Source of the DNA: an uncultured Clostridia bacterium
Lineage (GTDB): Bacteria; Bacillota; Clostridia; Christensenellales; UBA1242
Assembly (NCBI GenBank): GCA_944382715.1
Contig: CALWNC010000001.1
Coordinates: forward strand, 118,872-182,871
Direction of reading: 5' to 3'
DNA length: 64,000 bases
The position numbers and the translations under genes were made by a program. Under the pieces are notes generated by a model. That model saw only the letters and a program-made list of their open reading frames with translations. It was not told the origin of the DNA and ran no database searches. Shown piece by piece: positions 30,797 to 57,825 of the stretch. The stretch's first letter is position 1. Every line of letters begins with the position of its first letter.

Positions 30797-30911
30797 AACG
30801 GCAACGTTCTATCCTCCCGATTTGTCTCCAAATAAGTACTTTCGACCCTGCAAAGCTTAACTTCTGTGTTCGGAATGGGAACAGGTGGACCTTTGCGGTA
30901 TGATCACCGTT
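30797..30911 (-). rRNA. rrf: 5S rRNA
   Basis: Minus strand contains CACCTGTTCCCATTCCGAACACAGAAGTTAAG, the conserved 5S loop/helix region. About 115 nt; ends approximate. Confidence 0.9.
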
Positions 30912-30997
30912 AATGGTATAACAACACTTTTTCAAGTGATATTATCAAATTAACAAGTCCATAATAACACAAAAATATTATTATGTCAAGTGTTTTT

Positions 30998-31020
30998 CGC
31001 ACACTGGCAACTGCATATTA
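30998..31020 (-). other. 3' half of the 23S processing stem
   Basis: Complementary to 34211-34233 (21 Watson-Crick pairs, 1 G-U, 1 mismatch over 23 nt). Lies between 23S and 5S. Confidence 0.7.
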
Positions 31021-31079
31021 TTGAATCAGTAGCACATACATATCATCGTATAAATCTCTACTATTTTCACAATAATTGT

Positions 31080-34001
31080 GATCAAGCCCTCGACCTATTA
31101 GTATCAGTCAGCTCCATACATTACTGTACTTCCACCCCTGACCTATCAACCTTGTCGTCTACAAGGGGTCTTACTATCTTATGATATGAGATATCTTATC
31201 TTGAGGCAAGTTTCACGCTTATATGCTTTCAGCGTTTATCTTTTCCGTTCTCCGCTACTCGGCTATGCTTCTGGCGAAACAACCGATGCACAGTAGGAAC
31301 GTCCACTCCGGTCCTTGCGTACTAGGAGCAGATCCTCTCAAATATCTTACGCCCATGATGGATAGGGACCGAACTGTCTCACGACGTTCTGAACCCAGCT
31401 CGCGTGCCATTTTAATCGGCGAACAGCCGAACCCTTGGGACCAAATTCAGCCCCAGGATATGACGAGCCGACATCGAGGTGCCAAACCTTATCGTCGCTG
31501 TGTACGCTTGGATAAGATCAGCCTGTTATCCCCGAGGTAACTTTTATCCGATAAGCGACGGCAATTCCATTATCTACCGCCGGATCACTAGTTCCTACTT
31601 TCGTATCTGCTTGACTTGTAGGTCTCGCAGTCAAGCTCCCTTATGCACTTATACTCTGCGAATGGTTTCCAACCATTCTGAGGGAACCTTTGAACGCCTC
31701 CGTTACAATTTGGGAGGCGACCGCCCCAGTCAAACTGCCCACCTGACATGGTCCAATTACCAGCTCATGGTATATTGTTAGACTTCCAAAAACAAAAGGG
31801 TGGTATTTCAAAGGTGGCTCCTTGCAAACTTGGATCTGCATATCACAGCCTCCCACCTATTCTATACAATTATTTCCAGAAGTCAGTATCAGGATACAGT
31901 AAAGCTCTACGGGGTCTCTCCGTCCAGTCACGGGTAATACGCATCTTCACGTATACTACAATTTCGCCGGGTCCACTGTTGAGACAGCGCCCAAATCATT
32001 ACACCTTTCATGCGGGTCGGAACTTACCCGACAAGGAATTTCGCTACCTTAGGACCGTTATAGTTACGGCCGCCGTTCACTGGGGCTTAAGTTCTATGCT
32101 TTGGATTTAATTCCTAACACTTCCCCTTGACCTTCCAGCACTGGGCAGGTGTCAGCTCCTATACGTCAGCTTGCGCTTTCGCAGAAACCTGTGTTTTTGA
32201 TAAACAGTTGCTTGGGCCGTTTCACTGCGACCAATATTGCTATTGGCACCCCTTTTCCCGAAGTTACGGGGTCATTTTGCCTAGTTCCTTAACAATGGTT
32301 ATCCCGTCCGTCTTATGATTCTCTCATCGTCCACCTGTGTCGGTTTGCGGTACAGGTTCCTTATAGCTCTTTAGCAGATTTTCTCGCCAGTGTGAATTCA
32401 TTAGCTTCCTTACTATATTCAGTCCTCATCATCACCTAACCTATTGATGTGTGTACTTCACTGCACATCGGTCTCATGATTTAACCCCAGATTTCCACCC
32501 CTGGGGACTAACTATCCTACTGTGTCCCTGCATCAGTCTTAATCGCTATACGGAAGTACTGGAATATCTACCAGTTATCCATCGACTATGCCTTTCGGCC
32601 TCATCTTAGGTCCTGACTTACCCTGGGAGGACGAACCTTCCCCAGGAAACCTTGGACATTCGACGGCAAAGTTTCTCACTTTGCTCTCGCTACTCATGCC
32701 TGCATTCTCTCTTGTATGTAGTCCACCACCCCTTTCGATATGGCTTCAACCCAACATACATTGCTCCTCTACCAATTGCATTTTACTGCAATTCCCAAGC
32801 TTCGGAAGTAAGTTTGAGCCCCGTTACATTGTCGGCGCATCGCCACTCGACCAGTGAGCTATTACGCACTCTTTAAATGAATGGCTGCTTCTGAGCCAAC
32901 ATCCTGGTTGTTTAAGCGGCAACACATCCTTTTACACTTAACTTACATTTTGGGTCCTTAGCTGTGGATCTGGGCTGTTTCCCTTTTGACAACGGAACTT
33001 ATCTCTCGCTGTCTGACTCCCGGTAAACAATTAATTGGTATTTGGAGTTTGATAGGCCTGGAGCAGCTCACGCCACCTTGCGCCATTCAGAGCTCTACCC
33101 CCAACAATCTCTTAACCGAGGCTAACCCTAAAGCTATTTCGAGGAGAACCAGCTATCTCCGATTTCGTTTGGAATTTCTCCGCTATCCACAAGTCATCAC
33201 CTACTATTTCAACAGGAGTGTGTTCGGTCCTCCACGGTGTGTTACCACCGCTTCAACCTGCTCATGGATAGGTCAATCGGTTTCGGGTCTATGTCATGCA
33301 ACTATGTCGCTCTATTCAAACTCGCTTTCGCTACGGCTCCGAAACTTAATTTCTTAACCTCGCTACACAACATAACTCGCAGGCCCGTTCTACAAAAAGT
33401 ACGACATCACACTATAAGTAGTGCTTTGTCTGCTTGTAAGCATACGGTTTCAGGTACTATTTCACCCCCCTTCCGGGGTACTTTTCACCTTTCCCTCACG
33501 GTACTATACTCTATCGGTCACTAGGTCGTATTTAGCCTTAGGAGATGGGTCTCCCATATTCAAACCGAATTTCACGTGTTCGGTCCTACTCTGGAACACC
33601 ACTGCCTCTATTTAACTTTCGTCTACAAGACTGTTACTTTATTTTGTCGAGCTTTCCAACTCTGTTCGACTAGTTAAATATGAATGGCGTTATGTGGGTC
33701 CTAAACCCCATATATAAATATATGGTTTGGGCTCTTTCCTGTTCGCTCGCCACTACTTAGGAAATCATTGATTTATTTTCTTTTCCTCCAGGTACTTAGA
33801 TGGTTCAGTTCCCTGGGTTCCCTTCATACACACTATATATTCATGTGCAGATACTTGAGAATTACCTCAAGTGAGTTACCTCATTCAGAAATCTTCGGAT
33901 CAATACTCATTTGCAGTTCCCCGAAGCTTATCGCAGCTTGTCACGTCTTTCATCGGCGCCTAGTGCCAAGGCATCCACCGTACGCTCTTAGTAGCTTGAT
34001 C
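31080..34001 (-). rRNA. rrl: 23S rRNA
   Basis: 5' end GATCAAGCTACTAAGAGCGTACGGTGGATGCCTTGGCACTAGG and 3' end ...TACTAATAGGTCGAGGGCTTGATC, both on the minus strand. Many conserved 23S blocks; about 2.92 kb. Confidence 0.95.
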
Positions 34002-55833: not shown

Positions 55834-56089
55834 AGTGAAATGATATCACTAATATTCTTTAACTGTCAAGATAAAATGTATAGAGGAATATATAATTATA
55901 ATTATTTTATCAATTTGATTTATCTTCTTTACACCTAAATACAAAAAAATGTAAAAATTCTTAACAAAATTATTACTTAACAAAATAATTAAAATACTTC
56001 GCAAGTATTTTTAGTAAAAATTTTCAATAACAAAAATTAAATTTAATCTTTTTATAAAACTAAATTTAACTTAAATAATATTTTTAGCA

Positions 56090-56120
56090 CAAAAAAAACA
56101 ACCACATAAAGTGGTTGTTT
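56090..56120 (-). terminator. Intrinsic terminator of the 16S transcription unit
   Basis: AACAACCAC/GTGGTTGTT stem followed by T8-9 on the minus strand, about 180 nt after the 16S 3' end. Confidence 0.8.
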
Positions 56121-56301
56121 ATAATCACAAATTAATTAATATATTGATATACTTTTTATAGGTAAATTCTTGTGCGTTACATTTTAATAAACTTTGATGT
56201 GTTTACTGATCATCAAAGATGCTTTAAAGCATTTTTTCAAAGTTTTATTGGAACCAAAGGTTCCTCAATCGACAAGATGTAGTGAAAAACACTACTCCTT
56301 T

Positions 56302-57825
56302 AAAGGAGGTGATCCAGCCGCACGTTCTCGTACGGCTACCTTGTTACGACTTCACCCCAGTCATTTGTTTTGCCCTAGACGCCTCCCTCCCTTGCGGGTT
56401 AGGCTAACGGTTTCAAGCACCCCAAACTCCCATGGTGTGACGGGCGGTGTGTACAAGACCCGGGAACGAATTCACCCCAGCATGCTGATCTGGGATTACT
56501 AGCAAATTCAGCTTCATGTGGGCGGGTTTCAGCCCACAATCTGAACTAGGACCACTTTTTTGGGATTGGCTCCACCTTACGGTATTGCAACTCTTTGTAG
56601 TGGCCATTGTATTACGCGTGTAGCCCAAGATATAAGGAGCATGATGATTTGACGTCATCCCCACCTTCCTCCGTGTTATCCACAGCAGTCTCACTAGAGT
56701 TCCCAACTTAATGATGGCAACTAGTAATAAGGGTTGCGCTCGTTACCTGACTTAACAGAACATCTCACGACACGAGCTGACGACAACCATGCACCACCTG
56801 TCTCAATGTCACCGAAGTGCCTATCATATCTCTATGGTATTCATTGGATGTCAAATCTTGGTAAGGTTTTTCGCGTTGCATCGAATTAAACCGCATAATC
56901 CTCTGCTTGTGCGGGTCCCCGTCAATTTCTTTAAGTTTCAACCTTGCGGCCGTACTACTCAGGTGGAGTACTTAATGTGTTAACTGCGATACTGATGGAG
57001 TCGATACCACCAACATCTAGTACTCATCGTTTACGGAGTGGACTACCAGGGTATCTAATCCTGTTTGCTCCCCACTCTTTCGTGTTTCAGTGTCAGTAAT
57101 GTTCCAGTAAGTCGCCTTCGCCTCTGATGTTCTTCCTAATATCTATGCATTCCACCGCTACACTAGGAATTCCACTTACCTCTCCCACACTCAAGCCAAC
57201 CAGTTTTAAAAGCAATTCCCGAGTTGAGCTCGGGACTTTCACTTCTAACTTAATAAGCCACCTACACACCCTTTACACCCAGTCATTCCGGACAACGCTT
57301 GCCCCCTATGTATCACCGCGGCTGCTGGCACATAGTTTGCCGGGGCTTCCTTATAAAGTACCGTCATTTTTTCTTCCTTTATAACAGAAGTTTACAATCC
57401 GAAGACCTTCATCCTTCACGCGGTATTGCTGGGTCAGAGTTTCCTCCATTGCCCAATATTCCCGACTGCTGCCTCCCGTAGGAGTCTGGGCCGTTCTCAG
57501 TCCCAATGTGGCCGATCACCCTCTCAGGTCGGCTACTGATCATCGCCTTGGTGGTCCATTACACTACCAACTAGCTAATCAGACGCGAGCCCATCTCTTT
57601 CCAGTAAACCCTTTCACCTCTGTATCATGCGATACTGTGGTCATATTCGGTATTAGCAATCGTTTCCAATTGGTATCCCGATGAAAGAGGCAGGTTGCTC
57701 ACGCGTTACTCACCCGTCCGCCACTCGGTTTATTCCGTATTACTACAAAATAAACCTCGTTCGACTTGCATGTCTTAAGCATACCGCCAGCGTTCGTCCT
57801 GAGCCAGAATCAAACTCTTAAGTTT
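56302..57825 (-). rRNA. rrs: 16S rRNA
   Basis: 5' AAGAGTTTGATTCTGGCTCAGGACGAACGCTGGCGG and 3' AAGTCGTAACAAGGTAGCCGTACGAGAACGTGCGGCTGGATCACCTCCTTT on the minus strand. About 1.52 kb. Confidence 0.96.

Follow-up and report, generated by a model that had tools for sequence, protein, structure and literature searches.

Separate 16S, tRNA-Ile/tRNA-Ala and 23S-5S units in an uncultured gut and rumen Clostridia clade: an old split of the rRNA genes and a tRNA pair that probably came between them later

Here, we describe the arrangement of the ribosomal RNA (rRNA) genes in a stretch of 64,000 nucleotides (nt), hereafter the window, from an uncultured Clostridia bacterium (GTDB lineage Bacillota; Clostridia; Christensenellales; UBA1242; assembly GCA_944382715.1, contig CALWNC010000001.1, positions 118,872 to 182,871). 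The 16S, tRNA-Ile, tRNA-Ala, 23S and 5S genes follow one another on one strand in the order of a classic operon, and yet they are spread over 27 kb as three separate units: 16S, the tRNA pair and 23S-5S. From the comparison with relatives given below, we consider it likely that the split between 16S and 23S is old and clade-wide, and that the tRNA unit, along with about 20 kb of core genes, arrived later between the two halves. The RNA genes were located with Rfam (rRNAs) and ARAGORN (tRNAs), which confirmed the positions, the order and the minus strand reported in an earlier note on this DNA:

56302-57825, minus strand: 16S rRNA, full length (Rfam 1524.8 bits, model positions 1-1533)
44940-45015, minus strand: initiator tRNA-Met(CAU), found by ARAGORN, part of a conserved recD2-yabPQ-divIC-tRNA-Met block
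39074-39150, minus strand: tRNA-Ile(GAU), CCA encoded (Rfam and ARAGORN)
38992-39068, minus strand: tRNA-Ala(UGC), CCA encoded (Rfam and ARAGORN)
31078-34001, minus strand: 23S rRNA, full length (Rfam 2793 bits, model positions 1-2925)
30796-30911, minus strand: 5S rRNA, full length (Rfam)

The distance from 16S to tRNA-Ile is 17,151 nt, that from tRNA-Ala to 23S 4,990 nt, and that from 16S to 23S 22,300 nt. By the count of called genes, the first gap holds 19 protein genes and the second six, on both strands, in agreement with what the earlier note had stated. The identities of these genes, taken from NCBIfam, Pfam and public gene calls, also bear out the core genes it had named. On the 3' side of 16S, the first gap begins with a GNAT gene and a hypothetical gene, followed on the opposite strand by CmpB and an HD-domain gene; its middle part is composed of rpmG-secE-nusG-rplK-rplA and then tmk and a polysaccharide deacetylase gene (opposite strand); and it ends with recD2, yabP-yabQ-divIC, tRNA-Met, two large hypothetical genes, dapB and the hypothetical gene hyp201. 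The tRNA-Met is of the initiator type, as judged by its C1xA72 mismatch and GGG/CCC anticodon stem. The second gap contains a MerR gene (opposite strand), a DUF4097 gene, an HD_3 gene, a gene for a protein with a weak HIT match, and the hypothetical genes hyp67 and hyp303 (opposite strand). GC skew is negative over the entire window, and the minus strand is therefore the leading one.

The rRNA loci of relatives were reached by using a spurious antisense open reading frame (ORF) inside 23S as a protein query and fetching the contigs found. Five relatives gave the distance between the two genes:

L022: 16S and 23S-5S on one strand in canonical order, 16S-23S gap 2,959 nt
L023/L024: 16S and 23S-5S on one strand in canonical order, gap 3,206 nt
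L025: 16S and 23S-5S on one strand in canonical order, gap 4,152 nt
L027: 16S and 23S-5S on one strand in canonical order, gap about 4,322 nt
L045/L046: 16S and 23S-5S on one strand in canonical order, gap 2,232 nt

In a sixth, L026, hyp303 and hyp67 likewise adjoin 23S, and the contig stops before any 16S. No tRNA was found in the 16S-23S gap of any of the six relatives examined, with L026 covered only as far as its contig reaches towards 16S. The flanks of these loci are syntenic with the window, having mnmA and sometimes trpS and a gene for a transglutaminase-like protein before 16S, and a DUF1540 gene and rplI after 5S. The 16S sequences of the relatives are 85-96% identical to that of the window. 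In neighbour-joining trees of both 16S and 23S, the window groups with L022, L025, L026 and L027 (about 94% identity), L023 and L045 form a sister group (85-90%), and L047 falls outside (about 80%). This last taxon carries a linked mnmA-16S-23S-5S operon with an internal transcribed spacer (ITS) of 377 nt, which contains no tRNA. The rRNA genes of L047 (9153-15571) are oversized, with 2,028 nt for 16S and 4,014 nt for 23S over full-length Rfam matches, and ORFs of 164-218 amino acids (aa) are called inside its 23S; they may contain intervening sequences or introns.

Two features describe what separates the halves in the window:

34616-35754, plus strand: hyp303 and hyp67, adjoining 23S on the opposite strand, an orphan gene pair specific to the clade and present in every split relative
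35755-56087: variable slot from the 16S terminator to hyp67, about 20.3 kb, with 23 protein genes, tRNA-fMet and the tRNA-Ile/Ala unit

The hyp303 gene probably starts at 34664, giving a protein of 287 aa, and hyp67 encodes a small membrane protein. The homologous pairs of the relatives comprise 286-312 aa and 64-67 aa (L022 6087-7178; L023 12837-14028; L045 12703-13861), and the pair is always divergent from the 23S promoters. Sequence searches of Pfam, NCBIfam and the PDB gave no match for this pair, and a Foldseek search of the PDB with the AlphaFold2 model of hyp303 (predicted local distance difference test score of 66, confident just for residues 20-175) returned nothing below E = 0.8. 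The protein falls into about 164 clusters, mostly on short contigs, as expected beside rRNA, and this number points to many species in the clade. A further gene, hyp164, was rejected as a conserved member of the wedge between 16S and 23S: it is not homologous to the similarly placed gene of L022 and has no counterpart there, and the conserved wedge is therefore hyp303 and hyp67 only. Everything else in the gaps of the relatives is lineage-specific, ranging from one unrelated gene or a Fic gene to between three and five small genes. The slot equivalent to that of the window measures just 0.3-2.6 kb in them and holds unrelated genes.

The tRNA unit was sought in metagenomes with the 3' end of tRNA-Ile, which is specific to the lineage, and through look-ups of dapB homologues. 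The contig L043, whose RecD2 is 75% identical to that of the window, has recD2-yabPQ-divIC-tRNA-Met and, further on, dapB-hyp201-terminator-promoter-tRNA-Ala-tRNA-Ile-terminator; within 8.5 kb downstream of this unit there is no rRNA. The contig L041 shows dapB-hyp201-tRNA-Ala-tRNA-Ile. In both, the tRNAs are 100% identical to the pair of the window and the promoter (TTGACA...GTTTTGnTATTATATArGAGCATT) is orthologous, whereas the order of the two tRNAs is swapped and the leader is shorter. A scan of GTDB with RecD2 led to uncultured gut and rumen Clostridia metagenome-assembled genomes (MAGs) with 56-75% identical proteins, which share only the tmk-deacetylase-recD2-yabPQ-divIC-tRNA-Met block; in none of these relatives is there a 16S or a tRNA-Ile/Ala within 10 kb of recD2. 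Since an orthologous unit follows dapB-hyp201 elsewhere, away from rRNA, the tRNA pair is an old free-standing unit tied to dapB-hyp201 and not to the rRNA genes. L043 also contains, right after tRNA-Met (4122-4198), a tRNA-like gene called by ARAGORN with a four-base anticodon (cacc), for which the Rfam tRNA score is just 37 bits.

According to the earlier note, each of the three pieces has its own promoter or promoters and a strong intrinsic terminator. At the level of sequence this is supported, most of the signals being conserved in relatives, and the three terminators lie at the positions it gave:

58111-58139, minus strand: predicted 16S promoter P1, TTGACA-17-TATCTT, preceded by a T-run/A-run UP-like tract; among relatives, conserved in L022 only
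57993-58021, minus strand: predicted 16S promoter P2, UP-like tract, TTGACA-17-TATATT with TG; kept in four of four aligned taxa
39244-39272, minus strand: predicted promoter of the tRNA unit, UP-like tract, TTGACA-17-TATTAT followed by ATAGGAGCATT; orthologous promoter in L043 and L041
34528-34556, minus strand: predicted 23S promoter P1, TTGACA-17-TAACTT; -35, TAnnnT and the following ATAGG kept in six taxa
34381-34409, minus strand: predicted 23S promoter P2, UP-like tract, TTGACA-17-TACTAT with TG; kept in six taxa
30961-30989, minus strand: promoter-like site in the 23S-5S spacer, near-consensus TTGACA-17-TATTAT with TG, right after the 3' strand of the 23S helix
56088-56120, minus strand: intrinsic terminator of the 16S unit, hairpin 56120-56096 and T-run, -13.2 kcal/mol
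39395-39425, minus strand: terminator-like hairpin and T-run after hyp201, -12.4 kcal/mol; same arrangement in L043 and L041
38947-38979, minus strand: intrinsic terminator of the tRNA unit, A/T-rich stem and T9, -11.3 kcal/mol
30760-30788, minus strand: intrinsic terminator of the 23S-5S unit, hairpin 30788-30767, -11.1 kcal/mol
57937-57964, extending to about 57890, minus strand: 16S processing helix, 5' strand (leader), z = -7.1; conserved in relatives
56123-56173, minus strand: 16S processing helix, 3' strand (trailer, just before the terminator), from folding
34213-34234, minus strand: 23S processing helix, 5' strand, TCGCACATTGACAACTGCATAT, identical in six taxa, z = -11
30997-31018, minus strand: 23S processing helix, 3' strand (23S-5S spacer), from folding

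All five strong promoter-like sites share a common plan, namely a T-run/A-run UP-like tract, 3-4 nt, TTGACA, 17 nt and a -10 hexamer. The upstream regions of 16S and 23S are similar with a score of 61, against 29.5±3.6 in dinucleotide shuffles, and those of 16S and the tRNA unit with a score of 55, against 25.4±3.2, so that the likeness between units reaches z of about 8.7-9. It is limited to the promoter cores and to one 16-mer, CTTATAAGAGTTGTCG, which is identical at 16S P1 (58098-58113) and 23S P1 (34515-34530), on the minus strand in both cases, and spans the end of the -10 element and the predicted start. Such identity hints at possible homogenisation between the two P1 sites in the window species. 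The two P1 sites of L022 are less alike than those of the window. Paralogy of the whole 16S and 23S leaders was rejected, the segments downstream of P1 and P2 not being significantly similar, and a third 23S promoter proposed by the scan (34227-34199) turned out to be the 5' strand of the 23S processing helix. The site in the 23S-5S spacer is conserved in the window, L022, L026 and L023 and absent in L045; it may provide 5S with an extra promoter of its own.

A hairpin with a T-run stands at the equivalent place after 16S in five taxa, although the stem sequences differ, and the 23S-5S terminator has such a counterpart in relatives too. Having few G-C pairs, the terminator of the tRNA unit escaped the scan. 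The hairpin after hyp201 is predicted to insulate the promoter of the tRNA unit from hyp201. As for processing, 16S and 23S have a private leader/trailer helix each, and thus each rRNA would have a processing helix of its own; that of 23S encloses an inner stem adjoining the mature 23S ends. In L023, the complementarity of the 16S helix, read by eye, is kept with a different sequence, and the covariation counts on this helix come from four sequences, of which MAFFT misaligned the L023 trailer. The reading of TCGCACATTGACAACTGCATAT and its 16S counterpart as boxA antiterminators was dropped once folding and alignment showed that they are 5' strands of long processing helices, which may in addition play a boxA role. 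An element of the tRNA leader resembles TCGCACATTGACAACTGCATAT weakly (p about 0.02) and is not present in relatives.

Near 23S, both promoters, the leader strand of the helix and several leader blocks are kept in all six taxa, and near 16S, the aligned taxa have P2, leader helix and trailer in common. Judged by such predictions, 16S and 23S-5S are each a self-contained unit with its own promoter, leader/trailer helix and terminator. Because the promoters and helices are conserved across taxa and the 16S terminator is conserved in position, the split into a 16S with a predicted terminator of its own and a 23S-5S with predicted promoters of its own is old and clade-wide. A single precursor transcribed from promoters upstream of 16S, as in a canonical operon, is not what these signals predict: conserved terminators follow 16S and tRNA-Ala, 25 genes on both strands intervene, and separate conserved promoters precede the tRNA unit and 23S. 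Co-transcription, which the earlier note had called excluded, is thus better described as implausible. Nor is the tRNA-Ile/Ala pair placed inside a short ITS, as it is 17.2 kb away from 16S and 5.0 kb away from 23S.

Could the layout be a product of assembly? Contigs might have been misjoined through conserved rRNA sequence, the window comes from a short-read metagenome assembly, and several contigs do end within rRNA genes. The odd joins, however, are located past the conserved 16S terminator and upstream of hyp303, where the sequence is unique; they are seen again in other samples, with other assemblers and in distinct strains; and the immediate flanks of the rRNA genes are orthologous to those of the relatives. 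Dozens of contigs, stemming from several samples and several assemblers, encode the exact RecD2 and hyp192 proteins. On L001, from another sample, the whole 16S is flanked by hyp537 and the GNAT gene and its distance to the tRNA pair is that of the window, and L003, a contig from another sample, repeats the layout. L002, from a distinct strain, is 99.6%/95% identical to the window apart from an indel of 1.2 kb; it begins inside 16S and, going by the length and range given for it, reaches about the 3' end of 23S. A second distinct strain, L019, spans the 3' part of 23S, 5S and the downstream genes. Finally, L018 (408 kb, 100% identical to the window, of which it is probably the source) joins dapB, the tRNA pair, 23S-5S and the S10 operon. 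Since the odd joins lie in unique sequence and recur across samples and strains, we regard misassembly as very unlikely indeed.

The indel of L002 is a 1.2 kb insertion beside tRNA-fMet (L002 12392-13626; window about 44385-44938) with an HTH_3 gene and a gene of 111 aa; the 7.4 kb downstream of it are 95% identical to the window and the upstream part is 99.6% identical.

Short-read contigs that cross rRNA genes measure 77-408 kb in the window species and 0.7-1.06 Mb in the relatives. We infer that 16S and 23S are probably each present in a single copy in the window species, because short-read contigs are expected to run through rRNA genes only when these are single-copy.

Some further observations concern the genes around the rRNA units. 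Genes of the translation machinery are unusually dense on the minus strand between about 6000 and 61200, where mnmA, 16S, rpmG-secE-nusG-rplK-rplA, tRNA-fMet, tRNA-Ile/Ala, 23S-5S, rplI, the S10 operon and the minus-strand genes after it are found; unlike in most Firmicutes, rplJ-rplL-rpoBC are not next to rplA in the window. The dapB gene (40069-40815, minus strand) evolves fast, its nearest non-self homologue among 5.8 billion proteins being 56% identical, and as its homologues mostly have about 213-225 aa against the 248 aa of the window ORF, the true start is probably downstream. A gene of 60 aa is publicly annotated within 23S (32575-32757, minus strand; 7502-7684 in L018) with an in-frame TGA. 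An alternative genetic code with recoded TGA was rejected, given that TGA terminates three of 29 ordinary window genes, and this ORF is an annotation artefact.

Keeping in mind the loci of the relatives, we propose the following scenario. In the ancestor of the clade, a linked, tRNA-free mnmA-16S-ITS-23S-5S operon would have been split, and the orphan cassette of hyp303 and hyp67 would have ended up in the spacer on the opposite strand. On one side, 16S has a trailer helix and an intrinsic terminator to itself, and on the other, 23S-5S has tandem promoters and a leader helix. The space between the 16S terminator and hyp67 would then have turned into a variable slot. In the window species, core genes amounting to about 20 kb would have been relocated into this slot (rpmG-rplA, tmk, recD2-yabPQ-divIC-tRNAfMet, and dapB-hyp201 together with the tRNA-Ile/Ala unit), the old and free-standing tRNA unit having travelled with dapB-hyp201. 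The approximately 20.3 kb now in the slot indeed consist of blocks located elsewhere in relatives, the dapB-hyp201-tRNA unit among them. The most parsimonious ancestral state of the clade has 16S and 23S-5S separated by a short gap that contains hyp303 and hyp67 and no tRNA, the tRNA unit lying elsewhere. The three units would be expressed as independent transcripts from promoters of one class (UP-like T/A tract, TTGACA, 17 nt, -10), and processing would release each rRNA from a leader/trailer helix of its own. On how a balance between 16S and 23S might be kept, the best available inference is that their output is matched by like promoter modules, tandem P1 and P2 conserved in the clade, instead of by co-transcription.

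The most obvious alternative is the one favoured by the earlier note, which saw the tRNA pair as the original ITS pair surviving in place, and the locus as a preserved record of how a canonical 16S-Ile-Ala-23S-5S operon was pulled apart by insertions in both spacers. The order, the strand and the Ile-then-Ala succession do match the classic operon within 27 kb, and the collinearity of 16S before 23S is truly an in-place remnant; this part of the claim stands. However, the gap tRNAs are absent in all six split relatives sampled and likewise in the ITS of the linked outgroup, the orthologous tRNA unit of L043 follows dapB-hyp201 away from rRNA, and a surviving pair would require the same 20 kb block to have left the locus independently at least twice. 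Since the gaps of the relatives and the ITS of the linked outgroup are free of tRNA, and the tRNA unit is found elsewhere, the presence of the pair between the halves is most likely secondary. The synteny with relatives thus speaks for an old split and a later arrival of the pair and does not support the break-up record, and we hold survival in place to be unlikely. The Ile-then-Ala order of the window was most likely not inherited from the rRNA locus. That the tRNA unit has the same orientation as the rRNA genes may be explained by the tendency of the region to keep highly expressed genes on the leading strand. It could also be imagined that two or three neighbouring co-oriented rrn operons decayed in a complementary manner, each keeping a different part and its promoter region. 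The likeness of the three promoter regions, well above that of shuffled controls, and the 16-mer shared around the predicted starts of the two P1 sites are in keeping with such a history. Nevertheless, the leaders show no significant likeness beyond the promoter core (p about 0.06 and 0.6), in relatives the 23S promoters are already in place 2-4 kb from 16S with a single cassette inserted between, and Rfam reports no rRNA relics elsewhere in the window; we give this possibility very little chance. A long shot, too, is the idea that the relocation was selected and created a "ribosome-factory" domain of about 55 kb on the leading strand (16S, rpmG-secE-nusG-rplK-rplA, tRNA-fMet, tRNA-Ile/Ala, 23S-5S, rplI and the S10-spc-alpha operons), with hyp303 and hyp67 as a factor tied to 23S expression or 50S assembly.

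Several points weigh against the scenario of an old split followed by a later arrival of the tRNA unit. The tRNA order is Ile-then-Ala in the window and Ala-then-Ile in L043 (11436-11592) and L041 (399-555), where the two are 3 nt apart, as well as in L035 and L036, where they are 230-300 nt apart; across these four contigs, the tRNAs are up to 100% identical to the window pair. This mismatch reflects either a swap in the Ala-then-Ile lineages or a coincidence in the window, so that the window either kept the order of an older free-standing unit or has it by coincidence. The linked outgroup L047 is distant (about 80% 16S identity), and relatives of the same genus, with hyp303 76-80% identical, were found solely on contigs of 4.8 kb or less. 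The direction of change was derived by parsimony from a handful of metagenomic contigs, the single copy number from uninterrupted short-read contigs only, and the promoters, terminators and processing sites are predictions from sequence.

How does this locus compare with known cases? In Thermus, Rickettsia/Wolbachia, Buchnera and Helicobacter, the 16S unit is apart from 23S-5S, each having its own promoter and terminator, and the pieces are usually far apart and non-collinear, with the classic spacer tRNAs not between them. The window shares the separate 16S and 23S-5S units, and unlike those organisms it keeps the pieces collinear with tRNA-Ile/Ala between. Brewer et al. (10.1101/705046) define rRNA genes as unlinked when more than 1,500 bp separate the nearest 16S and 23S; the distances here are 22,300 nt in the window and 2.2-4.3 kb in five relatives. 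Exclusively unlinked genes were found in 3.65% of complete genomes, being frequent in several phyla (10.1101/705046) and occurring mainly in Borrelia, Helicobacteraceae, Rickettsiales, Deinococcus-Thermus, Chloroflexi and similar groups (10.1101/705046; ISME J 2020). As far as the account of that survey in PMC8178347 goes, none were detected in human gut long reads. Besides the distance, the window resembles the unlinked genes of Brewer et al. in that separate transcription is expected, the state is conserved within a lineage, and RNase III-type processing helices can persist for each rRNA. It differs in that the mean separation there is about 410 kb, whereas the genes of the window clade, from uncultured gut and rumen Clostridia, are close and collinear, 2-22 kb apart.

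The closest layout is that of Borrelia. In B. garinii PBi, the rrs-rrl spacer of 4,617 bp holds trnA, trnI, mag and a cof hydrolase gene (PMC2688082), and the window likewise has 16S and then 23S-5S in order, with tRNA-Ala, tRNA-Ile and protein genes between, so that it could be called an expanded spacer of the Borrelia type by resemblance of layout only. Borrelia belongs to an unrelated phylum and its spacer is much smaller, whereas in the window the tRNA pair apparently arrived secondarily, as a compact unit complete from promoter to terminator and in the company of 20 kb of core genes. Common descent of the two layouts is excluded, because both the phyla and the paths differ.

Overall, we conclude that the window adds one more case to the known unlinked rRNA genes and is no fossil of operon break-up, and the clade offers no step-by-step record of such a process. 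What is modestly new is the host lineage, the orphan cassette acting as a wedge between 16S and 23S, and the graded series formed by the clade. A widespread clade of uncultured gut and rumen Clostridia thus joins the organisms with unlinked rRNA genes. Long-amplicon methods that read 16S-ITS-23S will miss it, and rules based on adjacency cannot pair the 16S and 23S of its MAGs. At the same time, the clade provides a natural series, from linked genes through genes 2-4 kb apart to genes 22 kb apart with core genes between, which could serve to study how an rRNA operon, once split, has its promoters, terminators and processing helices rebuilt.

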